DNA of 64,000 nucleotides, from the NCBI GenBank assembly GCA_023245035.1, contig JAHFLD010000002.1:1501-65500 (forward strand). The letters are read 5' to 3'. Both the position numbers and the translations under genes were made by a program. Of the stretch, positions 1 to 35,656 are shown in pieces. Below the pieces are notes generated by a model. It did no database searches. It was not told the origin of the DNA and saw only the letters and a program-made list of their open reading frames with translations. Source of the DNA: Candidatus Harrisonbacteria bacterium. GTDB lineage: Bacteria > Patescibacteriota > Minisyncoccia > UBA6257 > 1-14-0-10-40-38. Each line of letters begins with the position of its first letter. The first letter of the stretch is position 1.

Positions 1-3000
1 GCGGTTTCGGGACTCCTCACGCTCTACTCGGGATTTATCTCGAGTGCCTCTTCGAGCGTCTCATCAAACCTTAATGTCTCGGGGGCCTTGAACGCCTCCT
101 CGACCTTGGCTGTTGGCGGCATCGCGACCTTAACCGGACTCGTCTCAACCGCCTCGAGCACGCTGCTCAACGTCAGCAACTTGAGCGGAACGAACGCGAC
201 TACGACCAATCTTTATGTTACAGATGTAGCCTCGCTCAACGGCGCTTCAACCACAATTACCAATCTGGTGACCGTCAATGCCTCAAGCACTAATTCAACA
301 ACGACTAATTTTTATATTGGAAATGGATTCGTATCCAATGGCAGCACGTCGGCCTCGTCCACGATTTTGGGCCGATTGAACATTCCTCAATCCGGTTCGG
401 CGGTTGGAGTTAGTATTTCCGGAGTGAGTACCGGCAGTGGTTTGCTTTTGGGGGCGCCGACAACCGGGAAGAGCATTGATGTTACGGCGGGATCTCTCAC
501 TTCAGGAAGCGTTCTTAGTTATAGCGGAAATACTAATGGCACTTTCGGAACGAGAAGTGGTAACTATATTAATATTGTGCCAACAAGAAATTTGACTTCC
601 AGTGATTCAACCAATTCTGGAAGCTTTATCAACTTGGAGGAGCGTTTACAAAATACCGGAACCGGTATAATGAGTATTACCGGGACGCTGATTACCGCCT
701 CTTCAACTTGTTTTGGTTCCGGACAATGCTATGACGGCGGCGGTTTGATTCTTTTGCGACAAAACAACGCGAACGCGACCGGAACGGTGGCGCGTCTTAT
801 CAGTAACGCATCATCAACGGTGCTCTTGTCGCTTGAGAATGCGGCGAATGTTCTTTATTCAATTGCTCCAACAACCAGTTCGTCCACGTCAATCACTATT
901 AGAACCGGTGGGGCGGCGACGACGACGATTCCGGATCTCTACACTAATATTTGGTCAATCGCAACCAACACCGCTTCCACTCCAGTCTTTACGATTTCAA
1001 CGCTTTCCGGTCCGCGGATTGGAATTGGTACGACGACGCCAAGCGCCGCGCTCGCGGTCAATGGCAGTTTTTACGTAACTGGAAGAAGCATAGCCGATGT
1101 TTTGCTCGCAACCTCAATTGGTATCGGCACCTCTTCACCGGCAGCGACATTTTCTATTCATGGTAATGAGTTGATTTCCGGCACGACGACAGTTGGCGGA
1201 ATTGTGGCGACATCATCAATCGATACCAGCAACAAGTCCGGCTTTACCTGGCTGACTGCCAGCGGTTTGAATGCCCTAGTTTTTGCCACCAATACGCAGG
1301 GAACCTCGGGACAGTATCCAATCTTTTCGATTGGAGCGACGACGACGTCTAACGGTGGTTTGGACTACGCGCGCGTGGCCGTTGGTACGACTACCGATGC
1401 TTTAAACAATGGATTGCGAGAGCAATTTACGGTTGCCGGTCGTCTGCGGCAGACGTGGGCGGTTTACGATAACGACTTCATGTCGGTTGGTGGAGGCAAC
1501 CCGGGCGCGGCAATCGCGAACTCGGATACGGCCAACGTTATTAACGGGGCCTTCCACTTTGATTCCGAAGGTCAGTGTCAATTGACTCAAATCCCGTCAA
1601 CAAATACAGTTGGTAATTCCAAAGGTATTATCGGGCTTCGGGCGTCTTCCGGAACGGGTACCACGGCTCCGGGAAATGGCTGTATTCTTTCGGCCGCCGC
1701 CAATACCGGGGCGACATCAAGTCCGGTTTTTGAGACCAAAGTGGCGATGAGTGCTACCAATAATTCACACGCTTTTGTTGGTTTGGGCTATGTTTCTGCG
1801 GTTGGCGGCGATGCCAATGCCAGTTCTACATTTGAGGTTGGTTTCAAATATGGAACTTCCAGTAACTGGTTTGCCGAGGCGAACGACAATGGCACGGCGA
1901 CGATGGTGGATACCGGAGTTGTGCCGTCAACTTCAGCTTTTCAGACTTTGAGGTTTGAGTTTGATTCCAATAGCAAGGTTTCTTTCTTTATTGATGGAGT
2001 TTTACGGGGTGTTATTACAACCAATATTCCTTCAGGAAGTATGGGGATGCTGTTTAAGTTGGAGCAGACGATTGATACATCTAACCCCGGTATGAGCATT
2101 GATTATGTTAAGTTGTGGGCGGACGATCCACCAGGCGGCAACGGACCCAATAGCGGTGGCGGCGGTAACGATCCGAACTTTAACTTACCACCAAACTTGT
2201 CATCGCTGGACATGATTTATCAGAGCGCGGTAGTTGAGCGTTACAACACCGCGGTGAATGCCCTTAACTATCCGCTTGGCACAGTGATGGCTTTTGATGC
2301 CACTAGTTCGCCGGTCTATGCCGGAGTTTATGTGAAACCAGCGGCTACGACTTATGGCGATTTGGTGATGGGGGTGGTAGCGCATAACGAGGCGGCCAAA
2401 ATTGAACTTGGTTTCGGTAACTTGCCACTGGTTAAAAGTGGTCGAGGGTATGTTCGAGTTCAGGGTCAAGTTAATGCCGGCGATTTGTTGACGATCTCTA
2501 CCACGCCAGGTGTTGCCGAAAAGGCGAATAATTCAAATCTTTTGCTGGGTCGCGCTTTGACTGCCGTGGGTAATAGCGGGTTAGTTTTGGCCGATATAGA
2601 GATTAAACATGAGTCGTCCACAACGACATATTCCAATGCGGTTTTCACGCAATCGAGCTTTACAAGTGCCACGACAACTAATGCCACCTCGACCTCCTTG
2701 TATGTTTCGGGTGCTTTGCGAGTAGCGACCACAACCGCCGGACTTGGTTCAGTTTTTGCCTTGCAGGGCAACGCGCTTTTCTCCGGCGATCTCTCTTTGG
2801 CTAACTTGATTGCGACCGGTACGACCAGATTTGGCGGAATTACATATACCTGGCCGACGACGCAGTCGGCGGCGTGTTTGAAAAATGACGGCGCCGGAGT
2901 TTTGAGCTGGGGCTCGTGCGGTGGAGCCTCCGGATCACAGACGCCGTGGGCGCAAAACATTGATGCCTCCGGCTTCAGCCTTTCCAATGTAACCAACATT

Positions 3001-6000
3001 ACCGCAACCGGAAGTTTGTTGGTTGCGAACGCGACTTCCACCATCACTAATCTGACGACGGTCAATGCCACTTCCACCAACGCGACCTCGACGACTCTTT
3101 ACGTTTCCGGTTCGGCGATATTTGCCGGCGCCTCGACCACGATCACCAACCTCAATGCCACCTTCGCCTCGCTTGTCTCCACAGGCGGCGTCTTCGCTTC
3201 GGGCACTGGCGCGGTTTCGGGACTCCTCACGCTCTACTCGGGCTTTATATCCTCGGCCTCCTCGAGTATCTCTTCGAACCTGAACGTCTCGGGGGCGCTC
3301 AACGCCTCCTCAACTCTGGCCGTAGGCGGACTTGCGACCTTGACCGGTCTGCAGTCAACCGCCTCGAGCACGCTGCTCAATGTGACCAACTTCAGCGGAA
3401 CGAACGGCACCACGAGCAATGAGGCGATTACCGGTTCGCTGGCCGTGACCGGAGCCTCCTCGAGCATCGCCAATCTCAATTTGGTGAACGCGACCTCGAC
3501 GACGCTCTACACCTCCGGACAGTTCCTCGCCGGGGGCGCCAGCAACACGATCTTGGGGACGCTCTACGGCTCAACCTTCAATCCGCAGACCTTGACCTCG
3601 ACTGGGAGTGTCAACGCCTCGGGCACCTTGGCCGTCTCGGGACTGGCCTCGCTCTACTCGGGCTTTATATCCTCGGCCTCCTCGAGCGTCTCCTCGAACC
3701 TGAACGTCTCGGGGGCGCTCAATGCCTCCTCAACTCTGGCCGTAGGCGGACTTGCGACCTTGACCGGTCTGCAGTCAACCGCCTCGAGCACGCTGCTCAA
3801 TGTCAGCAACTTTACCGCGACCAACGGCACCACGACCTCGGCCACCTCGACCTCCTTGTATGTTTCGGGCTCCTTGGGTGTCAACGGCGCCTCGACCACT
3901 ATCACGAACCTTGTAACCGTGAACGCCACGACAACTAATGCCACCTCGACCTCCTTGTATGTTTCGGGTGCTTTGCGAGTAGCGACCACAACCGCCGGAC
4001 TTGGTTCAGTTTTTGCCTTGCAGGGCAACGCGCTTTTCTCCGGCGATCTCTCTTTGGCTAACTTGATTGCGACCGGTACGACCAGATTTGGCGGAATTAC
4101 ATATACCTGGCCGACGACGCAGTCGGCGGCGTGTTTGAAAAATGACGGCGCCGGAGTTTTGAGCTGGGGCTCGTGCGGTGGAGCCTCCGGATCACAGACG
4201 CCGTGGGCGCAAAACATTGATGCCTCCGGCTTCAGCCTTTCCAATGTAACCAACATTACCGCGACGAATAGCATTCTAATCGCGGCTTCTGGTGGGAATA
4301 TTGGAGGACAACTCTCGGTAGTGGCGACTTCGACCGATAGCATGTTATTCATGGGCAGAGCCGCCTCTGGGCAAACGGGGCATTTGTTTGCTTTGCAAGA
4401 TTCAAGCGGGGTTAATTTGTTCAGTGTGAGCGCTACCGGCAATACCTTTGCTTCATCGTCATTGCAAGTTTCGGCGACGACGACCTTGTATGGCGATATT
4501 GTTTTGGACTACACGACGACCGACAGACCGCGTGTTTTGAAGATTGGCGCGCCTAACGGAAATCCCCGAGGTTTGTGGATTGCCACTACGACTGGTGCGG
4601 CCTTAAATACTCCAGGAACTTGGCCATTACTTGTGGTGCAGTCAACTACGACTGGGATGTTGGATTACGCACGAGTTGGGATCGGTACTTCTACAACCTG
4701 GGGTGAGGCGGGCTTGCGGGATCAGTTGACTGTTGCCGGAAGAGCCTACACAACTTGGCAGTACGCGTCGTGTGACTTTGCGGGAGCGTCGCTTACAGCC
4801 GCCGTCGCCGCGGCAACGAGCAATGTTTGCGGTCCCTTTGGATTCTTTATCCATCAAGCCGGTTCGTTGAGTCCTGGTACCACGACACCAACATATGTGA
4901 AGCTCAATTCTACGGGAGGCAGTATTGGTCAGGGGGCGATGCTTGGTACCGTGCCAAACTTTATTTCGGCGACCACCAGTCCGGTACTTGAGGCCTGGGT
5001 TTCGGTGACGAGTATTACAAACGGACATTATCAAGTTGGTTTCTTCGGTGCCACGAGCACGACTTGGGATCCGGCTTGGCAGATGAATAACGGCATCTTC
5101 TTTGTGGCGGAACAAAACTTGAATGGTGGTAACTGGACGGCGGTTAACAAGCGGACGAATATTGATGGCACGGTGGCGAGTACCACAATCGATACCGGCA
5201 TTCCCGGGGCGAGTGGTTTTTCGGCGAGTGGCGTGGCCCAGTATCGGCGCCTTAGAATTGAGGTTAGTACCAGCACAATTTATTACCTGATCAATGGGAG
5301 AATTGTGGCACAGTTGAGTACCACAACTCCGTCCAGGAATTTAACCCCGGCGGTAACGGTGGCCAGTGTTTACGCCGCTGCTAGAAAGGATCTCAACTTA
5401 AGATTGTTGCGCCTATGGAATGACGATCCGGTTGGGGGCGAGGTTGTCGGGGCTCCAGCTTTGGACGACTCAACTCCGGAAGTTTCCGATTTGGATCGCA
5501 ATCATACCGCCGGCAAGTTCTTCTTTACCGGAACTACGACGCCACCCGAGGGCAGTCTGGTTTCCTATGATTACGGGGCATCGACTCATAAGAGTGGATT
5601 GTGGGTAGGTTACGCCACAACAACTTACGAATCCGGTTTGGCTGGCGTCGTGGCCAGTGAGGGTAATTCGGCTCTGCGCTTTGGTTCGGGCGATATTGAT
5701 GTGGCTTTGAGTGGCAAGGCGATGGTGCGAGTAAGCGCTGTGAACGGTGAAATTCATGCCGGGGATTATCTGACTTCGAGCGAGGTTCCAGGTGTGGCGG
5801 TTAAGGCGACGCAATCGGGCTGGATTATTGGTCAGGCCTTTGAGAGTTATTCCGGAGGCGGCGAAGGGGCGGTCTTGGCGAATATCGCCCCCGAATTTAT
5901 GACGGTTGATAAACAGTCAGCTTCCGGCGTGATTGATTCTATTACCGAGACGGTTTCGGAATTGGCGGATTTTGTGGCGCAGAATAGCGCGAAGCTAGTG

Positions 6001-6729
6001 AAGGTTTTTTACGGTAAAATTGTGGCCGCGATCGCGGTGGTTAATAACCTTTTTGTGCACACGGTTACCATCTTGCCGGATGGCGAGCTTGCGGTGCCCG
6101 AGGGCGCGAATCAGATTTCCGGAACTGCGACTATTCAGTCCGGCGCTTCGGAGGTGACGATTTACAACACCAAGGTTACTTCTACTAGCAAGATATTTAT
6201 TACTCCGACAACATTGACCAGTTTGCCGCTTTCGGTGACCAATAAGACGTCGGGGCAGAGCTTTACGGTTAGCGTTCAGGGTACCTTGGTTAATTCGATA
6301 GACTTTGATTGGCTGATAATCGGAGCCTATCCTGCTGGTTTGGGAAATCCGCAGACGCAGCAGAATCAGGCGCCCAATAATTCGGGTGGACAGAGCGGTA
6401 ATTCCGGAGGCCTGGCTCCAGATCAGAATCTTGGCAATGGTTCAGGCGGGGATTCTACCGGTGGAACCGGGGCGGTGATTGTTCCGCCGCCGGATTCGCC
6501 CTTAACGCCACCGGATAGTGGATTAAATAATTCTTCGGGAGACGGTTCTTTGCCGATAATTCCGCCTCCAGATGCCGGACAAGTTAATTCACCGCCAGAT
6601 GCGGGAGTTTCAGCGCCGCCCCCAGATAATGGTTCGGGGCAAGTAACTCCACCACCGGACGCGGGAGTGAATAGCGGTGGCGCTGGCAGCGGGGAGCCGC
6701 CGGATGCCGGTTCGGCGCCGAATCCGTAA
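1..6729 (+). CDS. Very large repetitive S/T/N/G-rich cell-surface protein, 5'-truncated; two ConA/LamG-like lectin modules and a proline-rich C-terminal tail
   Basis: The reading frame is open from base 1, and bases 1-190 repeat bases 3211-3400, so the protein starts upstream of the window. The listed TTG at 88 is probably not the true start. It has ~22-aa periodic repeats (ASTTITNLxTVNATSTNATSTSLYVSG) and IGIGTTTPSAALAVNGS-type motifs. Two blocks end in DYVKLWADDP / LRLWNDDP, resembling ConA-like lectin/LamG folds. The C-terminus carries PPDAG repeats. Antisense ORFs in the track are low-complexity artefacts. Confidence 0.8.
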   Translation, partial: AVSGLLTLYSGFISSASSSVSSNLNVSGALNASSTLAVGGIATLTGLVSTASSTLLNVSNLSGTNATTTNLYVTDVASLNGASTTITNLVTVNASSTNSTTTNFYIGNGFVSNGSTSASSTILGRLNIPQSGSAVGVSISGVSTGSGLLLGAPTTGKSIDVTAGSLTSGSVLSYSGNTNGTFGTRSGNYINIVPTRNLTSSDSTNSGSFINLEERLQNTGTGIMSITGTLITASSTCFGSGQCYDGGGLILLRQNNANATGTVARLISNASSTVLLSLENAANVLYSIAPTTSSSTSITIRTGGAATTTIPDLYTNIWSIATNTASTPVFTISTLSGPRIGIGTTTPSAALAVNGSFYVTGRSIADVLLATSIGIGTSSPAATFSIHGNELISGTTTVGGIVATSSIDTSNKSGFTWLTASGLNALVFATNTQGTSGQYPIFSIGATTTSNGGLDYARVAVGTTTDALNNGLREQFTVAGRLRQTWAVYDNDFMSVGGGNPGAAIANSDTANVINGAFHFDSEGQCQLTQIPSTNTVGNSKGIIGLRASSGTGTTAPGNGCILSAAANTGATSSPVFETKVAMSATNNSHAFVGLGYVSAVGGDANASSTFEVGFKYGTSSNWFAEANDNGTATMVDTGVVPSTSAFQTLRFEFDSNSKVSFFIDGVLRGVITTNIPSGSMGMLFKLEQTIDTSNPGMSIDYVKLWADDPPGGNGPNSGGGGNDPNFNLPPNLSSLDMIYQSAVVERYNTAVNALNYPLGTVMAFDATSSPVYAGVYVKPAATTYGDLVMGVVAHNEAAKIELGFGNLPLVKSGRGYVRVQGQVNAGDLLTISTTPGVAEKANNSNLLLGRALTAVGNSGLVLADIEIKHESSTTTYSNAVFTQSSFTSATTTNATSTSLYVSGALRVATTTAGLGSVFALQGNALFSGDLSLANLIATGTTRFGGITYTWPTTQSAACLKNDGAGVLSWGSCGGASGSQTPWAQNIDASGFSLSNVTNITATGSLLVANATSTITNLTTVNATSTNATSTTLYVSGSAIFAGASTTITNLNATFASLVSTGGVFASGTGAVSGLLTLYSGFISSASSSISSNLNVSGALNASSTLAVGGLATLTGLQSTASSTLLNVTNFSGTNGTTSNEAITGSLAVTGASSSIANLNLVNATSTTLYTSGQFLAGGASNTILGTLYGSTFNPQTLTSTGSVNASGTLAVSGLASLYSGFISSASSSVSSNLNVSGALNASSTLAVGGLATLTGLQSTASSTLLNVSNFTATNGTTTSATSTSLYVSGSLGVNGASTTITNLVTVNATTTNATSTSLYVSGALRVATTTAGLGSVFALQGNALFSGDLSLANLIATGTTRFGGITYTWPTTQSAACLKNDGAGVLSWGSCGGASGSQTPWAQNIDASGFSLSNVTNITATNSILIAASGGNIGGQLSVVATSTDSMLFMGRAASGQTGHLFALQDSSGVNLFSVSATGNTFASSSLQVSATTTLYGDIVLDYTTTDRPRVLKIGAPNGNPRGLWIATTTGAALNTPGTWPLLVVQSTTTGMLDYARVGIGTSTTWGEAGLRDQLTVAGRAYTTWQYASCDFAGASLTAAVAAATSNVCGPFGFFIHQAGSLSPGTTTPTYVKLNSTGGSIGQGAMLGTVPNFISATTSPVLEAWVSVTSITNGHYQVGFFGATSTTWDPAWQMNNGIFFVAEQNLNGGNWTAVNKRTNIDGTVASTTIDTGIPGASGFSASGVAQYRRLRIEVSTSTIYYLINGRIVAQLSTTTPSRNLTPAVTVASVYAAARKDLNLRLLRLWNDDPVGGEVVGAPALDDSTPEVSDLDRNHTAGKFFFTGTTTPPEGSLVSYDYGASTHKSGLWVGYATTTYESGLAGVVASEGNSALRFGSGDIDVALSGKAMVRVSAVNGEIHAGDYLTSSEVPGVAVKATQSGWIIGQAFESYSGGGEGAVLANIAPEFMTVDKQSASGVIDSITETVSELADFVAQNSAKLVKVFYGKIVAAIAVVNNLFVHTVTILPDGELAVPEGANQISGTATIQSGASEVTIYNTKVTSTSKIFITPTTLTSLPLSVTNKTSGQSFTVSVQGTLVNSIDFDWLIIGAYPAGLGNPQTQQNQAPNNSGGQSGNSGGLAPDQNLGNGSGGDSTGGTGAVIVPPPDSPLTPPDSGLNNSSGDGSLPIIPPPDAGQVNSPPDAGVSAPPPDNGSGQVTPPPDAGVNSGGAGSGEPPDAGSAPNP

Positions 6730-6829
6730 GTCTTGCCGATGGGGATGGCTTGGCTTGAACTCTGTTTCCGATCTGTTAAACTTTATCCATTGAAGCTATT
6801 TTGGTTCACATAAATTATTTAATAAACTT

Positions 6830-7249
6830 ATGAAAAAAGATAAAATTATTTTTTCGCTGGTTCTTTTAGTGGTCGTGATTATGCTTGGTATTTTTTGGAA
6901 GACAGGTTCAATCTCTTTGACCGGGGATGAGGCGGTGAAGGCGGTTTTTTTGGCGAACGGGCAGGTTTATTTCGGCAAGGTCAGCGCCCAGAACAGCCAG
7001 TTTCTTCGCTTGACCGATATTTTTTATTTACAGGTTAGTCAGACGTTGCAGCCGCCGCAATCCGGCGTTCAGCCCCAGCAGAAAATTGATCTGGTGAAGT
7101 TGGGCAATGAGTTGCATGGGCCGCAGGATTTGATGGAGATTAACCGCGACCAGATATTATTTATTGAGAAGCTTCGCGATGATTCTAAAATTCTTAAGGC
7201 CATCCATGATTTTAAGAATCCTGGTACAAGTGGCCAGCCGGCTAATTAG
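6830..7249 (+). CDS. Hypothetical membrane-anchored protein (N-terminal TM helix)
   Basis: 139-aa ORF with N-terminal hydrophobic helix FSLVLLVVVIMLGIFW. No recognisable catalytic motif. Confidence 0.5.
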   Translation: MKKDKIIFSLVLLVVVIMLGIFWKTGSISLTGDEAVKAVFLANGQVYFGKVSAQNSQFLRLTDIFYLQVSQTLQPPQSGVQPQQKIDLVKLGNELHGPQDLMEINRDQILFIEKLRDDSKILKAIHDFKNPGTSGQPAN

Positions 7250-8036
7250 TGTTTTTCGCCGATCAGTTTTCGGAACAGGGGGGTTGTGGTTAATCCCTCT
7301 GTTTCTTGTTTTTTGGTTGGTGACACCGGTTTTGGCCACGGACTTTTCGGGAACGAATTTTATTATCAAGGATCCCGTGTTGAACGGTTCTTCCGGCTCG
7401 GCCACTTCCAGCAGTTTTGGTTTGCGGGGAACAATCGGGGAGCTTGGCGTGGGGCTTGGAACTTCAACTAACTTTGGTCTTCGCTCCGGTTCGCTTTATT
7501 TTCCGACACCGCCAAGCCCAAGCCCATCACCAACGCCGAGCCCATCGCCATCGCCAAGTACCGGCGGCAGTCCGTTTATTCCCCAGGTAGGAGTCGTGCC
7601 GCCGCTTTCGGCTAATATTTTGGTGAACTTGGCGAATATTATTCCGGTTTCCAATTGCAAGAATCCGGCTTTGAGGCGTTCGGATTATAATTGCGACGGC
7701 AAGGTAAATTTGAGAGATTTAAGCATTCTTTTTTCGGCTTCAGTTAAAAACGTGGCGCGCAATTTGAGCTTCTTGTTCTCTGACTGGACCGAGATTTTGC
7801 CGCGCTTTGCCACGCCGGAGACCTCCTCGCCAAAACAAATTGCCACGACACCGACGAATTTTGGCCGCGGGGTTTCGCCGACATCCCAGTTGGCGCAAGT
7901 GGGCGGAGCCGCTCAACGACCGGTTGATCTTCCTTCCTCTGGTGTGCAGTCTTTTTTTGGTAAGGTTAAGCAGTTGGTTAAGGATGTCTTATCTTTAGTA
8001 TTAACTGTTTTTCGCCTGTTGCCATTTCGGTTTTAG
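7164..8036 (+). CDS. Secreted Pro/Thr-linker protein with a single dockerin-like calcium-binding repeat; start uncertain
   Basis: Signal-peptide-like segment LWLIPLFLVFWLVTPVLA, then a PSPSPSPTPSPSPSPS linker and the motif DYNCDGKVNLRDLSILF, which matches the dockerin D-x-N-x-D-G-x-V-N-x-x-D consensus. The ATG at 7164 overlaps the previous ORF; TTG 7284 is an alternative start. Confidence 0.5.
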   Translation: MRSFAMILKFLRPSMILRILVQVASRLISVFRRSVFGTGGLWLIPLFLVFWLVTPVLATDFSGTNFIIKDPVLNGSSGSATSSSFGLRGTIGELGVGLGTSTNFGLRSGSLYFPTPPSPSPSPTPSPSPSPSTGGSPFIPQVGVVPPLSANILVNLANIIPVSNCKNPALRRSDYNCDGKVNLRDLSILFSASVKNVARNLSFLFSDWTEILPRFATPETSSPKQIATTPTNFGRGVSPTSQLAQVGGAAQRPVDLPSSGVQSFFGKVKQLVKDVLSLVLTVFRLLPFRF

Positions 8037-8082
8037 TCTTTTTCTCACAGGCCGAGATCGGCAGATACTATATACTAGTGGG

Positions 8083-9339
8083 GTGGCTATTCGTCGGATT
8101 GTTTTGGTTGGGTGTTGTTCTTTAATGTTTTTTGCCGCGCCCTTAGCTTTGGCGGCTACTATGCGGCTGACTCCGGCTACGGGAAGCTTTATTTTGGGCA
8201 GCACTTTTGACTTAGCGGTCGTAATGAATACCGGCGGAGTAGCGGTTAACACCATTGAGGCCGACTTGCGTTTTCCTCCGGATAAACTTCAACTGGTTAA
8301 TCCATCGCTCGGAAAATCAATCGTACAGATTTGGGCCAGTCCGCCGACCTATTCCAATCAAGAGGGGCGAATTTATTTTATCGGCGGGATTCCGTCGCCG
8401 GGAATTACGACCTCGGAGGGCATTGTTCAGTCGTTTACCTTTCGGGTAACGGCTCCCGGAGCGGCACAGATTGATTTCGGCAAAAATAATTCTATTTTGG
8501 CGAACGATGGGTTGGGGACTAATGTTCTACAGCAAACTTCGCCAGCTTCGTTTCGGCTGTTGTTGCCACCGGCGCAGGGTCCGAAGATTTTTTCGCCATC
8601 GCATCCGGAGCAGGGCAAGTGGTACAAGGATCCCAATCCAATTTTTCAATGGGAGGCTTCGCCGGGAACCAATGGTTTTAGCTATGCTTTGGATCATGAT
8701 CCCAATGGCGCGCCGGATAACGTGGTGGAGACTGCCGAGGCGCAGGCATCGTTTACCGCCATCGAAAGCGGGGTTTGGTATTTTCATGTCAAAGAGCGGG
8801 CGGGTAACAGCTGGAGCGGGGTCAGCCATTTTTTTGTTAATCTGGACACATTGCCTCCGGCAGAGTTTGGCGTTAAGGCTTCGCCGGGATTGCGGACTTC
8901 CAACAAGAGTCCGATTCTGCGATTTTTTACCACGGATTCGTTGTCGGGATTTGATCATTTTGAGTTGAAGTCGGTGGCGCTAAAAGACGGCCCGAGCCAG
9001 TCTTCGTTTTTCTTTGAGGCATCCAGTCCATATCAACTTTCCGGTTTAAAAAGCGGGCGTTATGAAATTGTGGTCCGGGCTTACGACAAGGCCGGCAACT
9101 TTCGCGATGAATCGGTGACAATGAATATTCTTTCTTCGCTTGTCCAATTTGTGAGTCCGGAGGGAGTGGATTTTGTCTTGTTCTTTGTGCCCTGGGCCAG
9201 ATTCATCCCGACGCTCTTGGTGTTTTTGGTTTTCTTAGTCGGTTTTGTGATTTTTGTGTTGCACCGGCATCATCACCACCTACGGCATATTATTCGCGAG
9301 GATTTGCAGATTAAAAAACCTCGCCCCGGAAGGCGATAA
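8083..9339 (+). CDS. Membrane-anchored cohesin-like / FN3-like surface protein with C-terminal TM helix and His-rich tail
   Basis: Signal peptide MFFAAPLALAA. The N-terminal ~140 aa (TGSFILGSTFDLAVVMNTGGVAVNTIEADLRFPPDKLQLVN...) resemble a cohesin beta-sandwich. FN3-like repeats follow, then a C-terminal TM helix (LLVFLVFLVGFVIFVL) and HRHHHH. Confidence 0.5.
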   Translation: MAIRRIVLVGCCSLMFFAAPLALAATMRLTPATGSFILGSTFDLAVVMNTGGVAVNTIEADLRFPPDKLQLVNPSLGKSIVQIWASPPTYSNQEGRIYFIGGIPSPGITTSEGIVQSFTFRVTAPGAAQIDFGKNNSILANDGLGTNVLQQTSPASFRLLLPPAQGPKIFSPSHPEQGKWYKDPNPIFQWEASPGTNGFSYALDHDPNGAPDNVVETAEAQASFTAIESGVWYFHVKERAGNSWSGVSHFFVNLDTLPPAEFGVKASPGLRTSNKSPILRFFTTDSLSGFDHFELKSVALKDGPSQSSFFFEASSPYQLSGLKSGRYEIVVRAYDKAGNFRDESVTMNILSSLVQFVSPEGVDFVLFFVPWARFIPTLLVFLVFLVGFVIFVLHRHHHHLRHIIREDLQIKKPRPGRR

Positions 9340-9343
9340 AATT

Positions 9344-10075
9344 ATGCGACGATTTTCAATCATCTTATTCTTGGTGTTGCTATTGTCCGCTCGTGACGTT
9401 CCGTTTGTTTTGGCGGAGGATCGAGAGATTCCGCAGCCGTCGGTGACGGTAGTGCCGGATTACTACTATCCCTTTGAGGAATTTTTGCATTTAGAGGGAC
9501 GAGCGGAGCCACGAGCGATTGTGAGCGTGGAGCTCGAGAGACAGGCCGAAAAGCCGGTTAAGTTTACGGTTTCCGCCGATTCAGCCGGGGAATGGGTAGT
9601 GTGGCCGACCAGCCGAGTTTACCTCTCCGCCGGTTCCTGGGTGGTTCGGGCGCGCCAGCAAGTAGGGACTTCAACCGGTTTTTCTGATTGGTCTAATCCG
9701 CAAGTTATTCAATCGGTGATCACCGGATTTACGATTTTTGGAATCAACGTGCGCTATGCCTTGATCGGGGTTATCTTATTCGTCTTTGTTCTTATTTTGG
9801 CTTTTGTTTTCTTTTACTTCGCGAGAAAGATTCGCCGTTTAAAGCGCCAGGTTTTTGAGAAGCGCTTGCGGGAGACGACGGATCAAGTGCGGCGAGGTTT
9901 TTCGGAAATTCATAAAGATTTGATGCAGGAGCTTTTAATGCTGACCACGAAGGCGCAGACTCAGCCATTGTCCCCGGAAGAAATTCAACGCAAAGATCAT
10001 GTGTTGCGCGAGCTGGAAGAGTTGGAAAAAAATGTCAGTGACGGCATGGCGAACATGAATCGCGATATTGATTGA
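9344..10075 (+). CDS. Hypothetical secreted protein, single-pass membrane, cytoplasmic coiled coil
   Basis: Internal ATG at 9344 gives MRRFSIILFLVLLLSARDVPFVLA (signal peptide). A TM helix (IGVILFVFVLILAFVFFYF) follows, then a basic stretch and a coiled-coil tail. Confidence 0.55.
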   Translation: MRRFSIILFLVLLLSARDVPFVLAEDREIPQPSVTVVPDYYYPFEEFLHLEGRAEPRAIVSVELERQAEKPVKFTVSADSAGEWVVWPTSRVYLSAGSWVVRARQQVGTSTGFSDWSNPQVIQSVITGFTIFGINVRYALIGVILFVFVLILAFVFFYFARKIRRLKRQVFEKRLRETTDQVRRGFSEIHKDLMQELLMLTTKAQTQPLSPEEIQRKDHVLRELEELEKNVSDGMANMNRDID

Positions 10076-10198
10076 TTTCGGTTAATCGGGTATGGTTTTT
10101 TTAGTAGTGTTTTTTTTGGTGGAGTAGCGGAATGGTTTGAGACGACAGTTTTGCTTTTCTGTAGTGGTCTCCTACAGGAGAAACTTACCGATCAGCGC

Positions 10199-10285
10199 GG
10201 AGGGGTGGCAGAGCGGTCTAACGCGCCGCACTTGAAATGCGGTATACCCGAAACGGTATCGTGAGTTCGAATCTCACCCCCTCCG
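10199..10285 (+). tRNA. tRNA-Ser (anticodon TGA), CCA not encoded
   Basis: GGAGGGG acceptor pairs with CCCCTCC. Anticodon stem-loop CCGCA-CTTGAAA-TGCGG, long variable arm, T-arm GTGAG-TTCGAAT-CTCAC. Confidence 0.85.
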
Positions 10286-11481: not shown

Positions 11482-13212
11482 ATGTTCTTGGATAAGGCGT
11501 TTCTGGATCGGGCAATACCGATTGCTCGACAGTTCGTAAGAGCCCCAGTTCCGTATCAGTTTTCGGTTCGCGAGACTGAAGCCCTGAAATTGTTTTTTAC
11601 CAGTGCGACTTCGAGAGTTTTTTTCTTCCGGAATATGCCGCCGAATTTTTCGGCGGCGCTGCTCGCGATGTATTCGCGGCTCAAGAATCAGCGAGGGATT
11701 CGCGGTCATTTTGTTGATACGCTCTTGCCGCTTTTGCTAACGGGGCTTTTGGAGAATTTCTCCGAAGTTTCGCCAAGCGGAGCGATTCATGCCTATCAGG
11801 CTTATCTGACCGGATTGGGCATTAGGTCGCTTGATCAGTTCTGCGAAGCCAAGATAGAGCATCTGGCGGTATTTAAGGATTTCGTGGCGAATGCCACGGG
11901 CGATCCACGACTTGAAAAACAGTTGGCGGATTCACCGAAGATGAAGGCGTTGCTTGATGTGTTTTTGGACAAGTACGGGCACAATTCCATCGCGCGCGGA
12001 GCGGCTCTCACGTTCGCAGTGGAAGACATTTCCATTCTCGCGGCCAAGTCCATTGAGTGGAATCGTCCGGGTTCGGGGTTTATTGAGTTGAGCACGCGGT
12101 TTGTGGATATTTCGCGCGCCAGACAGTATCCAATCTGGGACGAGATTGCCTTAGTTTGCGAAGAGGCGGCGTGCGCGGCCAGAGAGGCGATTGTTCAGGC
12201 GAGCGCGGCTTATCGAACCTTGATTGGTGTGGCGTTTGACGGAATCTTGCCGAAGTTTTTTGAGCAACACTTCGCCCCGCTTTTGCCGGTCAAGGACTTG
12301 AAGTCCGCGGTTCAGGGCGAGGCGTGCGACGTGGCGGGCAATGTTTTGCCGTGCGCGACTTTGACTTCGGTTGGGGTGGCGATTTCCGGCGAGGCTTTTG
12401 ACTCTCTGCTTAAGCATCTGTTGCTTGACGCGACTCCGGAGAACTTTGCTCTGGTTGAATTGATTTTGGCCGAAGCCGCGAAGGTTGGCGGGGATCAGTT
12501 TGCCCGACACTACGAGCCGTCGCCGTGGGAAGTTGAGGGGTGGAGATACTTATCCTCGCAGAATATCATCCAAGGTTTCGGCACGACTTCGCTCTTGATT
12601 GCCGAGGATGTTTTGTGGAATTATTTTCGTTCCGATGGCACGTCCAACGGTTCCGCGGTGTTTGAAGATGTGCTGAGAAAGTTGCCGTTTGAAGAGAGGG
12701 GAGAACACGATCGCTTGCCCTATCATTTTGAAACGGTTTTTGGCACTAGCTTTGGAAAGATGTCTTTTCGTGGTTGGCGAGATTTGCAGAGGCATGTGCT
12801 CGCGACTCACGCGCGGACATTGGTTGATCCGAGTCTCGGTTTTTACCATTACGACAAGCCGGCACCCACCGAATTGGCCGACGTGTTTGACGAGATTCAC
12901 CTGATGAATCGAGCCACGTGGACGGCACTCTGCGGTCGCGGAGTCGCTCCGCTTATCGCGCAGTATGCCATGGCGATGGGTAATCTGGTTGGATTCCTGT
13001 GCGGTGCCAATTTGCGCGAATGGGAGTTCATCCTGTGGCAGAGAAGCGACTTTCAAGTGAATCACGAGGTGCGACAGGTGGCGCTGGGGATTGATCGCGC
13101 CCTGCAGATTCAGTTTCCGTGGTGGCGAAAAATTTCCCGTACCGATCTGACTCCGGCTTATGTGGCCGCTCGTAGTGAAGTTGGCGTGCCGTTGCCGACA
13201 AGTGTTGGTTGA
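11482..13212 (+). CDS. Hypothetical 576-aa protein, bracketed by TACGAAT direct repeats; weak tandem ThyX-like signature (speculative)
   Basis: GGAG RBS 5 nt upstream of the ATG. Two halves carry faint TFAVEDIS...ELSTRF and SFRGWRDLQRHVLATHART segments, reminiscent of the ThyX TFxxEGxS...RHR...SQRY signature. No confident assignment. Confidence 0.5.
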   Translation: MFLDKAFLDRAIPIARQFVRAPVPYQFSVRETEALKLFFTSATSRVFFFRNMPPNFSAALLAMYSRLKNQRGIRGHFVDTLLPLLLTGLLENFSEVSPSGAIHAYQAYLTGLGIRSLDQFCEAKIEHLAVFKDFVANATGDPRLEKQLADSPKMKALLDVFLDKYGHNSIARGAALTFAVEDISILAAKSIEWNRPGSGFIELSTRFVDISRARQYPIWDEIALVCEEAACAAREAIVQASAAYRTLIGVAFDGILPKFFEQHFAPLLPVKDLKSAVQGEACDVAGNVLPCATLTSVGVAISGEAFDSLLKHLLLDATPENFALVELILAEAAKVGGDQFARHYEPSPWEVEGWRYLSSQNIIQGFGTTSLLIAEDVLWNYFRSDGTSNGSAVFEDVLRKLPFEERGEHDRLPYHFETVFGTSFGKMSFRGWRDLQRHVLATHARTLVDPSLGFYHYDKPAPTELADVFDEIHLMNRATWTALCGRGVAPLIAQYAMAMGNLVGFLCGANLREWEFILWQRSDFQVNHEVRQVALGIDRALQIQFPWWRKISRTDLTPAYVAARSEVGVPLPTSVG

Positions 13213-25953: not shown

Positions 25954-28017
25954 ATGTCGTTTTCGACCACAAAAAAAGCCGCCGCGGAGCGAATCGCTGT
26001 TTTGCGCGAGGCCATCAATAAGTTTCGCTATCATTATCATGTTTTGAACGAATCGCTGATTTCCGATGAGGCTTTGGATACGCTCAAAAAAGAACTGTTT
26101 GATTTGGAGGGGCGTTTTCCAGAGCTCGTGACGCCGGATTCGCCGACTCAAAGAGTGGCGGGCGAGCCGCTCCAGAAGTTTAATAAGGTGAGCCACGAGG
26201 TGAGAATGATTTCGTTAAACGACGCTTTTTCGGAGGCCGATCTTCGCGCCTGGTTTGAGCGTCTGGCTAATTTTTTGGGACGCGAGCCAAAGCCTGAATT
26301 TTATTGCGAGCTTAAAATTGACGGCTTAGCGATTGAATTAATATATGAAAATGGCGTTTTGGCGCGGGCTTCCACTCGGGGCGATGGGCTGGTCGGCGAG
26401 GAGGTGACGCAAAACTTAAAAACGGTGGAGGCGATTCCACTCCGTTTGCGCGGTAATTATCCAAAAAAATTAACGGTTCGCGGAGAAGTTTTTTTGACCA
26501 GGCAGGAGTTTGAGCGCATTAACCGAGAACAAGTTGCTCGTGGTGAAAAGCCGTATGCCAATCCGCGAAATGTGGCGGCGGGGGCGGTGCGCCAGCTTGA
26601 TCCGAGGATTACCGCCTCGCGCCGTTTGGATTCTTTCGCTTATTCCATAGTAACCGACTTAGGGCAAGCGACACATGAAGAAGAGCATCGCTTATTGCAT
26701 TCGTTTGGTTTTAAGACAAACCAGCACAACGCGTTAGCCGGCTCGCTGGAGAAGGTGATTGCTTTTCGCAACCACTGGGAATCGCATCGGGAAAAATTGG
26801 CTTATGAGATTGACGGGGTGGTGGTTATTTTGAACGACAACGAACTTTTCGCGCGAGCGGGGATTATCGGCAAGTCGCCGCGAGCAGCCATGGCTTATAA
26901 GTTTGCTTCACGGGAAGCGACGACGATAGTTCGGGAAATTGTCGTTCAGGTTGGAAGAACCGGAGTTTTGACGCCAGTCGCGATTTTGGATCCGGTGAAT
27001 GTTGGCGGAGTTACCATTACTCATGCCACTTTGCATAATGCCGATGAGATTGAGCGATTAGGGTTGAAGCTTGGAGATACGGTGGTAGTAAGCCGAGCCG
27101 GAGATGTGATTCCGAAAATTATTAAGGTTTTGCCGGAATTGCGAACCGGCAAGGAGCATGGTTTTAAGATGCCGCAAGTTTGTCCGGTTGACGAGTCTCC
27201 GGTTTTGCGCGACGGGGCTTTATATCGTTGCGGTAATCCGGTTTGCGGAGGGCGACATCGCGAGGCTCTTTATCATTTTGTGGGACGATCCGCTTTTAAT
27301 ATTGAAGGCATGGGGCCGAAGATTATTGACCGTTTTCTGGATGAGGGCTTGGTGGCCGATGCCGCTGATATTTTTTCGTTGCGTGAGGGTGATATCGCGG
27401 CCTTGCCGAGATTTGGCGAGAAGTCCGCGGCTAATTTGATTAATGAAATCGCCGGACGCAAGCAGATCACCCTGACCCGTTTTTTGTTCGCGTTGGGCAT
27501 TCTTCATGTGGGCGAAGAAACGGCTAGGGTTTTGGCCGAATGGCTGGTATCCCGTTTGCCGAAGCGAGGCACGACTTTTAATCCGGAGGTCTTAGGGTCC
27601 TTGATGAAGGAAATCAGCGTGGATGATTTGCAAATGATTCCCGATGTTGGTCCGGCGGTGGCGCAGAGCATTGCTTTGTGGTTTACGCAGTCGCGAAACC
27701 AAACCCTGCTGAAGCGACTGGGAGGGGTTGGCGTGGTGTTTCAAGTTTCCTCGCCCAAAGAAAAAGGAGCGCTTACTGGGAAGTCATTTGTGATTACCGG
27801 TACCTTGTCTCAAATGAGCCGTCAAGAAGCCAAAGAGCGAATTCGGAATTTGGGAGGAGTGGTTCACGAGTCGGTTTCAAAGGCGACGAGCTATGTGGTT
27901 GTTGGCGCGGATCCAGGTTCAAAGGCTCGCAAGGCCGGGGAGTTGGGACTTACGATACTTTCCGAGGAGGAGCTGGGATCATTGCTTAACGTTGCCCAAA
28001 AGAAGAACGCGTCGTAA
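25954..28017 (+). CDS. ligA: NAD-dependent DNA ligase LigA
   Basis: KxDG adenylation motif (ELKIDGLAIEL). Zn finger CPVDESPVLRDGALYRCGNPVCGG. C-terminal BRCT. Confidence 0.92.
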   Translation: MSFSTTKKAAAERIAVLREAINKFRYHYHVLNESLISDEALDTLKKELFDLEGRFPELVTPDSPTQRVAGEPLQKFNKVSHEVRMISLNDAFSEADLRAWFERLANFLGREPKPEFYCELKIDGLAIELIYENGVLARASTRGDGLVGEEVTQNLKTVEAIPLRLRGNYPKKLTVRGEVFLTRQEFERINREQVARGEKPYANPRNVAAGAVRQLDPRITASRRLDSFAYSIVTDLGQATHEEEHRLLHSFGFKTNQHNALAGSLEKVIAFRNHWESHREKLAYEIDGVVVILNDNELFARAGIIGKSPRAAMAYKFASREATTIVREIVVQVGRTGVLTPVAILDPVNVGGVTITHATLHNADEIERLGLKLGDTVVVSRAGDVIPKIIKVLPELRTGKEHGFKMPQVCPVDESPVLRDGALYRCGNPVCGGRHREALYHFVGRSAFNIEGMGPKIIDRFLDEGLVADAADIFSLREGDIAALPRFGEKSAANLINEIAGRKQITLTRFLFALGILHVGEETARVLAEWLVSRLPKRGTTFNPEVLGSLMKEISVDDLQMIPDVGPAVAQSIALWFTQSRNQTLLKRLGGVGVVFQVSSPKEKGALTGKSFVITGTLSQMSRQEAKERIRNLGGVVHESVSKATSYVVVGADPGSKARKAGELGLTILSEEELGSLLNVAQKKNAS

Positions 28018-34429: not shown

Positions 34430-34503
34430 CCCGGGGTAGAGCAGCCCGGTAGCTCGTCTGGCTCATAACCAGAAGGTCGCAGGTTCAAATCCTGCCCCCG
34501 GAA
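34430..34503 (+). tRNA. tRNA-Met (anticodon CAT), probably initiator (C1 x A72 mismatch)
   Basis: CCCGGGG...CCCCGGA acceptor with an unpaired 1-72 position. CTCATAA anticodon loop. Confidence 0.8.
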
Positions 34504-34590
34504 CAAGGGATAAGTTTTCGCACAGGCGGTTTTTTGGATCGGCGCTATGCTGGGCGTAGGACTTTAAAATTTTTATGAAGGAGTTTTGGA

Positions 34591-35583: not shown

Positions 35584-35655
35584 GCCGACGTAGCTCAGTG
35601 GTAGAGCGGACGTTTCATAAGCGTTAGGTCGCAGGTTCGATCCCTGCCGTCGGCA
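35584..35655 (+). tRNA. tRNA with CAT anticodon (elongator Met or Ile2/lysidine), CCA not encoded
   Basis: GCCGACG acceptor. D-arm GCTCAGTGGTAGAGC. Anticodon loop TTCATAA. T-arm GCAGGTTCGATCCCTGC. Confidence 0.8.
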
Positions 35656-35656
35656 C

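Follow-up and report, generated by a model that had tools for sequence, protein, structure and literature searches.

To our knowledge, the way in which the ultrasmall bacteria of the Candidate Phyla Radiation (CPR, Patescibacteria) find and hold their host cells is largely unknown. Studies of their host attachment have so far dealt mainly with type IV pili and with a small number of adhesins. Giant CPR surface proteins with adhesion-type domains, including concanavalin A (ConA)-like ones, are already reported in passages of PMC13059738 and PMC10633639; the proteins of Absconditicoccaceae and Saccharibacteria described there exceed 1500 residues, are predicted to lie at the surface, carry ConA-, FN3- and Ig-type domains, and were proposed to act in host recognition. 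A surface gene of a Gracilibacterium, the PTD repeat locus, contains internal repeats that fragment assemblies and is suspected to vary in length (PMC6851277). Phage tailspikes, in turn, trimerise with the help of a G2-type intramolecular chaperone, which is then cut off (PMC3357383, PMC4690869, PMC10253068). Here we compare with these systems a gene that lies at the start of a stretch of 64,000 nucleotides from a Candidatus Harrisonbacteria contig (JAHFLD010000002.1); this whole stretch is referred to below as the window. We assign a probability of roughly 0.6 to the reading that the product of this gene is a Sec-secreted, probably trimeric and glycan-binding surface fibre that acts in partnership with a cassette of genes located directly downstream. 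Three aspects appear to be undescribed, namely a C-terminal module that resembles phage receptor-binding proteins (RBPs) and includes a G2-type chaperone domain, the phylum-wide spread of this module, and the version with two modules that is found here. A literature search joining Patescibacteria and tailspike retrieved no relevant paper, and the passages of PMC13059738 and PMC10633639 mentioned above make no mention of such a module, in which a neck, a ConA-like domain, a G2-type chaperone and a K1-lyase_C domain follow each other, or of its duplication.

Reading frame +1 is uninterrupted from base 1 of the window to a stop codon at 6727-6729 (2242 codons plus stop). Since the frame is already open at base 1, the gene must start upstream of the window, as had been noted in a preliminary description of this DNA that was made from the sequence alone; positions 1 to 6729 of the + strand, to which all coordinates below refer unless stated otherwise, hold its 3′ part of 6.7 kb. 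Searches with the whole protein against Pfam, NCBIfam and the PDB gave no match, and matches arose only when individual domains were excised. Unlike the giant proteins reported previously, the family thus has no Pfam or NCBIfam model over most of its length. Exact-pattern scans with window bases 121-204 found no other copy in genome or metagenome contig collections. The 32 homologues that support the gene are giant Patescibacteria proteins of 1300 to 3300 residues (all named homologues belong to this group), which match the window protein almost solely via a module close to the C-terminus. The gene is probably the 3′ part of a giant surface-fibre gene of a Patescibacteria/CPR bacterium of Parcubacteria type, and the view that it encodes a very large, Ser/Thr/Asn-rich and most likely extracellular protein is borne out by its 2242 residues within the window and by the signal peptides of its homologues.

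The protein contains an ancient internal duplication: in an alignment of 454 columns, residues 435-866 and residues 1537-1962 are 31% identical (E 2e-32). Each copy represents a module of about 430 residues that consists of a conserved neck, a ConA-like domain and a beta-tulip domain. In module 1, the neck (LDYARVAVGT...GLREQFTVAGR) and the ConA-like jelly roll extend over 1264..2145 (a jackhmmer domain at residues 422-715) and end with LWADDPPGG; in module 2 they extend over 4558..5445, as delimited by AlphaFold2 (AF2), Foldseek and conservation, and end with LWNDDPVGG. The neck is the most conserved stretch of the family (ATTTGxLDYARVAIGT...GLRDQFTVAGRIYSTW). For modelling, module 2 was split into a domain A (residues 1520-1815) and a domain B (residues 1816-2115). 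Domain A was predicted by AF2 to fold as a beta-sandwich (model mb35d2f96ce00), with predicted local distance difference test (pLDDT) values of 82-93 over residues 68-290 of the model. Foldseek returned 414 matches in the PDB at E<=1e-3, all of which belong to the ConA-like lectin/glucanase superfamily (best E 7e-8); these include the L-type lectins Emp47p, ERGIC-53 and VIP36, GH16 laminarinases, PL7 alginate lyases, BoNT Hc-N and CBM40, at template modelling (TM) scores of 0.45-0.59. With the L-type lectins and the ConA-like carbohydrate-binding domains among these (Emp47p, ERGIC-53, VIP36, CBM40, BoNT Hc-N), domain A has the jelly roll in common over about 220-230 aligned residues (Foldseek probability 1.0), but it differs from them in its sequence, which is only about 10% identical to that of any fold match, in its own set of family-invariant residues (E1664, W1712, R1752, E1754 and a WxDDP motif), and in a near-invariant Cys pair within the jelly roll (residues 1591 and 1610). 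Sequence families are less telling: module 1 reached 24.6 bits against Pfam SO2946-like_C (cut-off 27) and module 2 matched no family, and Laminin_G_3 matched 2 of 20 relatives with a best E of 2e-4, just below threshold.

The preliminary description had proposed two lectin-like blocks of about 110 residues, embedded in fibre-like repeats, and had named structure prediction as a way to check them. The predicted fold is indeed a beta-sandwich of ConA type, and the motifs at the block ends are located as described, DYVKLWADDPPGG at residues 701-713 (nt 2101-2139) and LRLWNDDPVGG at residues 1803-1813 (nt 5407-5439), as is the PPDAG-type tail at nt 6487-6711. The blocks are larger than was thought, however, with about 230 residues each (nt ~1465-2139 and ~4759-5439), and their surroundings are rich in Ser, Thr and Asn; they are not isolated inserts but parts of the duplicated module. 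The two ConA-like domains, as modelled, are most likely ligand-binding heads that would recognise glycans on a host cell or surface. It could also be argued that they are GH16- or PL7-like enzymes, and that the protein is a depolymerase fibre which cuts polysaccharides of the host or of the surrounding matrix. The best fold matches include GH16 laminarinases and PL7 alginate lyases, E1664, R1752 and E1754 are invariant, one relative matches Glyco_hydro_16 at E 0.1, and the protein ends in a K1-lyase_C domain of the kind that is typical of phage depolymerases. We nevertheless consider this unlikely. The leading fold matches are non-enzymatic L-type lectins, the identity to all matches, enzymes included, is around 10%, and a regular-expression search for the GH16 motif ExDxxE and the PL7 motifs R.E.R, Q[IV]H and Y.KAG.Y found none of them in any of 20 A domains. 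It is this absence of GH16 and PL7 catalytic motifs that makes glycan binding the most likely function of the domains.

Domain B carries the link to phage fibres. In its AF2 model (m3199af449274, pLDDT 82), a barrel comes first (residues 1836-1967), then a helix, a linker of low confidence and, at residues ~2037-2107, a sandwich. The barrel, which lies at 5506..5901 and is predicted with pLDDT >90, is a beta-tulip of the phi29 gp12 D4 or Peptidase_G2 type, and the alpha-helix lies at 5929..5985 (residues 1977-1995; assigned by DSSP to residues 162-180 of the model, with low confidence around it). Module 1 has a corresponding beta-tulip at 2191..2625, which was detected with the jackhmmer B-profile (residues 731-940), resembles phage cement proteins and gp12 D4, and matches Pfam Phage_cement at E 0.004; this module holds the barrel only, with no helix or sandwich after it, and the sequence leads straight back into the shaft. 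The matches of the module 2 barrel in the PDB are trimeric beta-tulip proteins of phages, namely the base of the phi29 head-fibre protein gp8.5 and the cement proteins of Pam3 and BB1, and its best match in BFVD is a ‘Preneck appendage protein’ (E 1.3e-9, 27% identity, TM 0.60). In a profile built from 33 B domains, an acidic motif, GADxAExY, aligns to residue 1 (DFAEYFE...) of 3gqh, which is the released C-terminal fragment of phi29 gp12. The profile also aligns to the D4 chaperone of the tailspike Dpo31, the alignments spanning residues 1-52 of 3gqh_A and 6-60 of 28nb_A, and the best relative scores 24.5 bits against Peptidase_G2 (cut-off 25). Judged by profile and predicted fold, the B barrel is a remote homologue of the G2-type intramolecular chaperone of phage tailspikes.

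The comparison with phage RBPs such as phi29 gp12 and Dpo31 extends to the order of parts: in both cases the beta-tulip, homologous in profile and fold, comes after the part that binds the ligand and after an extended body of fibrous or beta-rich structure, and the GADxAExY motif aligns where the released gp12 fragment begins. The window protein shares a K1-lyase_C sandwich with depolymerases. There are also clear differences. The window gene lies in a cellular chromosome, its homologues carry Sec signal peptides, and its product is much longer than the phage proteins; a depolymerase body of beta-helix type was not detected in it; and it has the chaperone-like domain twice. The first copy (residues 731-875) is internal and the second is followed by the helix, the sandwich and a tail of 127 residues, so that neither stands at the extreme C-terminus. 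About half of the relatives retain the acidic motif, but both window copies have lost it: at the position of D-x-A-E-x-Y/F, copy 1 reads AVVERY and lacks the Asp, and copy 2 reads TAGKFF, or DLDRNH in an alternative register, and lacks the Glu either way. With at least one acidic position of this cleavage motif lost in both copies, it is likely that the chaperone-like domains of the window protein are not cut off, and judging from these residues both are probably retained as permanent trimerisation nodes.

A trimer is not the only arrangement that can be envisaged. The protein might be a monomeric repeat adhesin of the Bap or RTX type, with a single-chain beta-solenoid or Ig-like stalk in which the phage-like domains are mere spacers and no chaperone guides trimerisation. 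AF2 is confident of the beta-tulip and of the sandwich as monomers, and there are frequent reports of giant surface proteins from Patescibacteria that combine different adhesion domains (PMC13059738, PMC10633639). This arrangement seems improbable to us, since all structural relatives of the beta-tulip and of the C-terminal sandwich are trimeric phage proteins, and the self-cleavage motif known from trimeric tailspike chaperones is preserved in about half of the family. Moreover, the neck, despite being the most conserved part of the family, is modelled poorly as a monomer (pLDDT 44-54), which may reflect a structure formed between chains.

The sandwich at the end of domain B (6109..6321) matches the K1-lyase_C family over residues 2037-2091, with 32.5 bits where Pfam PF24146 requires 27. 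By Foldseek it resembles the C-terminal domains of K64-1 S2-4, Pam1, Sf6 and the K1 lyase, a type of sandwich typical of the C-termini of phage tailspikes and depolymerases. It is followed by a tail (6346..6726) that consists of 20% Pro and 20% Gly according to its composition; a motif count over nt 6487-6711 gave four copies of PPDAG and the variants PPDSG, PPDSP and PPDNG, in agreement with the (PPDAG)n tail described initially. Homologues likewise end in Pro-rich tails. Those of the closest relatives (P0001 and P0002 at the C-terminus, and locus L051 at 2190-2761) were seen to contain 1-5 copies of a module C-S-D-G-I-D-N-D-x-D-G-x-x-D-L-x-D-x-D-C, and the window protein has its PPDAG repeats where the relatives carry this Cys-bracketed acidic module. 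The acidic module has the look of a calcium-binding sequence, and its match to the EF-hand models of Pfam is weak only.

Around the two modules the protein consists of shaft sequence with a low content of charged residues (3-5% overall) and about 34% Ser plus Thr, which is built from Y units of 140 residues and two X units of 113 residues. Shaft segment 1 (1..960; rich in Ser, Thr, Gly, Leu and Asn, 5% charged) was delimited by composition and a jackhmmer self-scan, in which the first 141 residues of the window were recognised as a copy of the Y unit. Shaft segment 2 (2626..4560; 2.7% charged) contains Y units at 3211-3630 and 3631-4029, partial Y copies at 2893-3207 and 4150-4464, and both X units. 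Searches with the shaft, the X unit and the region before the module found no match in Pfam or the PDB and no useful match in PHROG. The sequon N-x-S/T is mildly enriched in the whole protein (53 observed against 41 +/- 5.6 in shuffled sequences) and occurs 24 times in shaft segment 2 (15 +/- 3 in shuffles), and motifs of the NATSTNATST kind recur in the protein. On the minus strand, long open reading frames (ORFs) of 157-262 codons lie within the fibre gene at 2466-3080, 3654-4442 and 4642-5115; these are probably by-products of a codon usage rich in Ser, Thr, Ala and Gly rather than genes.

As delimited by exact-match extension, X unit copy 1 (2668..3005; residues 890-1002, containing GITYTWP...LKNDGAGVLSWGSCGG) and copy 2 (3925..4262) are 100% identical over 338 nt, and the offset between them, 1257 nt, equals 419 codons and keeps the frame. 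The preliminary description had listed a 320-bp identical repeat here, which is real and was given the right ends, but which was started 13-15 nt too late. On either side of the perfect tract, nucleotide identity falls sharply to ~45-50%, and a chunked self-comparison identified the flanks as old, diverged copies of a super-repeat with ~55% amino acid identity. The sharp edges of a 100% identical tract within such flanks point to gene conversion or recent patch copying, and the tract looks like the result of one of these processes within an old repeat array. The repeats had been described as recent intragenic duplications; they are perfect and in frame, but since the tract is set within older, diverged repeats it does not look like a simple recent tandem duplication. 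The Y unit measures 420 nt. Its copies at 3211-3400 and 3631-3820 are 91.6% identical, so that ‘near-identical’, as the ~190-bp repeat had been called, was mildly overstated; the third, more divergent copy at the window start is present as described and is 82% and 79% identical to them over 1-190 (82% and 78% over 1-210). A perfect core of 80 nt lies inside the Y repeat (3304-3383 and 3724-3803). This core and the X pair are the only perfect direct repeats of at least 40 nt in the window, which excludes a chance origin. The codon differences between the Y copies are mainly synonymous (24, against 7 non-synonymous), which fits translated repeats under purifying selection.

Repeats of this kind invite the suspicion that the second X unit is an assembly artefact, a mis-joined or duplicated segment, and that the true gene has a single X unit. 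The source resembles a metagenome assembly, and in assemblies the genes of related fibres are frequently interrupted, in locus L005 by an N-gap and elsewhere by contig ends. However, the two X copies have different flanks, which are coding, in frame and themselves old diverged copies of one super-repeat, and the offset is exactly 419 codons. In addition, window positions 4226-10279 are matched at 100% identity by a Logan contig from an independent assembly (L001, from SRR14366769), whose start lies within X copy 2, 37 nt ahead of the end of that copy; this is where a k-mer assembler is expected to break at a true repeat. An artefact is therefore very unlikely. Related fibre genes were seen to be systematic assembly breakpoints: the gene of P0002 is split by an N-run at ~9900-10000 of L005, and L001 starts within a repeat. 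Because these genes break assemblies, database entries of the family are often fragments labelled ‘partial’. The PTD locus of the Gracilibacterium is likewise a CPR surface gene with internal nucleotide repeats that break assemblies, but its repeats are tandem units of 9 nt, whereas those of the window gene are dispersed or tandem units of 338 and 420 nt that encode folded shaft segments.

Export of the protein is supported by its homologues. In at least 12 of them a conserved motif of the INYQGKL type comes after an N-terminal signal peptide or signal anchor, and in the second closest homologue, P0002 in L005, whose gene is split by the assembly gap, the N-terminal piece has a signal peptide at its start. 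Along with the Cys pairs and the Pro-rich tails, these signal peptides argue for export, and we infer from the homologues that the window protein is Sec-exported. The gene is followed by a cassette of four genes on the + strand. Gene 1 (6830..7249) encodes 139 residues with an N-terminal transmembrane segment and has orthologues with 50-58% identity directly downstream of the fibres in L004, L005 and L006. Gene 2 (7206..8036) encodes ~250-276 residues, depending on an uncertain start codon, with a signal peptide, a PS-rich linker and one dockerin-like DYNCDGKVNLRDL motif (orthologues 32-40% identical). Gene 3 (8161..9339) encodes a weakly cohesin-like or Ig-like protein of 392 residues with a C-terminal transmembrane segment (65-71%), and gene 4 (9344..10075) a protein of 243 residues with a signal peptide and a C-terminal transmembrane segment (46-54%). 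Both the order and the sequence of the cassette are kept after related fibres in at least five other Patescibacteria contigs (L004, L005/L059, L006, L009 and L051), and its proteins vary far less than the fibre does. Across cassette loci the 392-residue protein is 65-71% identical, while domain A of the fibre is only 32-44% identical, a pattern that would fit a fast-evolving recognition protein with conserved partners. When loci with at least 7 kb of downstream sequence were compared, a homologue of the 392-residue protein was present at 4 of the 9 loci where K1-lyase_C was detectable, as against 2 of the 22 where it was not (Fisher p 0.04, with small numbers). A hairpin with a 15-bp stem followed by a T-run was observed at 7272-7305, just past the stop codon of the 139-residue gene. 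The hairpin overlaps the annotated 5′ end of cassette gene 2, which makes that start codon doubtful, and the fibre gene and gene 1 may form one transcription unit.

The conserved cassette also bears on the question whether the gene is a tail-fibre gene of a prophage or tailocin rather than a cell-surface gene. The C-terminal domains are of phage type, and this is what speaks for a prophage. Yet the downstream ORFs, scanned to ~28 kb, revealed no structural genes of a phage, the neighbours being a tRNA gene, ThyX, a ComF-like gene, genes for type IV pili and LigA; Sec signal peptides are present in homologues; a cassette of membrane proteins is conserved after the gene in several genomes; and members of the family reach 5476 residues and lie on chromosomal contigs of up to 744 kb. 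A phage origin of the locus is thus hardly credible.

Several observations nonetheless count against the picture of an exported, trimeric fibre with lectin-like heads and partners in the cassette. The N-terminus of the protein lies outside the window, so that its export is judged from homologues only. The term fibre is itself argued from composition and repeats, the shaft matching no known structure or family, and the perfect repeat is taken from a metagenome-style assembly. The AF2 predictions are of monomers only. As to the chaperone, the E-values of the B-family profile against the PDB are weak (0.02), and Pfam Peptidase_G2 (PF11962) matches neither copy in the window; in phi29 gp12, Asp692 and Glu695 were reportedly found by Xiang and colleagues in 2009 to act in cleavage. 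The ConA-like fold is also used by enzymes, and E1664, R1752 and E1754 could form an unrecognised active site. Finally, the cohesin- and dockerin-like neighbours of the preliminary description are reflected in the weakly cohesin-like gene downstream, but both labels stay below threshold (Pfam Cohesin 20 bits against 24.1; Dockerin_1 12 bits against 22.9).

If the reading as a surface fibre holds, the following sequence of events can be envisaged. The giant Ser/Thr/Asn-rich protein would be exported by Sec to the cell surface and form a homotrimer, in which the beta-tulip domains may nucleate the three chains and set their register, by analogy with phage fibres. The chaperone-like domains, being uncleaved, would stay in place as trimer clamps, one within the fibre and the other close to its end. 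Both ConA-like heads would bind a ligand, most likely glycans of a host cell or surface, and the fibre would work with the four downstream membrane proteins, possibly as its anchor. Recombination between X units (338 nt) or between Y units could lead to the gain or loss of blocks of 419 or 140 residues, respectively, and a RecA-type deletion or duplication of 419 residues would change the length of the fibre. Long identical direct repeats in frame are a trait that the gene shares with recombination-variable surface proteins, and the contig break at X copy 2 is the one observation that relates to length variants in a population. With its lectin-fold heads and its phage-like tip, the product would be a plausible candidate for a host-attachment protein.

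The module is by no means restricted to this locus. An exhaustive search with the B-profile yielded 27,306 cluster representatives at E<=1e-3, of which 22,825 also pass E<=1e-10, and the best matches are proteins of 1000-5500 residues that carry the module near the C-terminus, often with 2-4 matched stretches; named examples come from Woesebacteria, Gracilibacteria and other Patescibacteria. The module thus closes thousands of giant Patescibacteria proteins. When GTDB species representatives were scanned with domain A, 53 loci were found, nearly all labelled Patescibacteria. Each of these has one A domain: two A domains occurred in none of the 53 loci (with flanks of at most 10 kb, many shortened by contig ends) and in none of 20 protein homologues, which suggests that the two-headed architecture of the window protein is unusual. 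Repeated B domains, unlike two A domains, are not unusual.

Farther downstream the window contains a tRNA-Ser gene, a ThyX-like gene, a ComF-like gene, a type IV pilus cluster (PilM, PilO, PilB, PilT, PilC, pilins and a prepilin peptidase) and LigA (25954-28017). This LigA has 60-65% identity to proteins from Parcubacteria-group MAGs, Harrisonbacteria and Colwellbacteria among them, in keeping with the Parcubacteria type of the organism. The position next to pilus genes had been taken initially as a hint at the function of the fibre. Synteny does not support this, because PilB, PilT, PilC or PilM occur within 10 kb of the fibre at just 3 of the 53 related loci, and L003-L007 lack them; we therefore rejected a link with type IV pili, and the adjacency in the window is probably coincidental. 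A diversity-generating retroelement (bAvd and a split reverse transcriptase) was observed at 1569-4068 of L004, 2-4 kb upstream of the gene of the closest homologue. Its variable and template repeats of 134 nt (1856-1989 and 2465-2598) are 87% identical; as the variable repeat lies at the 3′ end of a separate gene of 139 residues, the element was rejected as a diversifier of the fibre. The ThyX-like ORF at 11482-13212 encodes 576 residues, two stretches of which match Thy1 (ThyX) at E 2e-16, and exceeds twice the usual length of ThyX. Two tRNA-Met (CAT) genes, possibly for initiator, elongator or tRNA-Ile2, lie ~1 kb apart at 34430-34504 and 35584-35656. Nearly all 2-kb bins of the window have a positive GC skew, the cumulative curve climbs monotonically and long ORFs are almost all on the + strand, from which it seems that the window lies within one replichore and that its genes strongly favour one strand.

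For this single window, the present analysis mainly provides a better annotation of one member of the family and no new mechanism. For the family, it defines a widespread C-terminal module of giant Patescibacteria proteins that lies largely outside Pfam and NCBIfam, and it ties these proteins to phage RBPs. Several predictions follow: the fibres would be trimeric, members with an intact GADxAExY motif would cleave themselves, the ConA-like heads would bind glycans, and the fibre would be a partner of the cassette. As a tentative idea, possible though not one that we would favour at present, Patescibacteria may build host-recognition organelles from parts of phage RBPs. Sec-exported trimeric fibres would then occur throughout the phylum, with G2 chaperones that cleave themselves in about half of them and persist as fossilised clamps in the others, lectin heads would set the host, and the window protein would be a rare two-headed, cassette-docked form whose length is tunable by recombination. 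If this is true, the lectin-fold heads would decide which host cell an episymbiont attaches to, as tail fibres set the host range of a phage.

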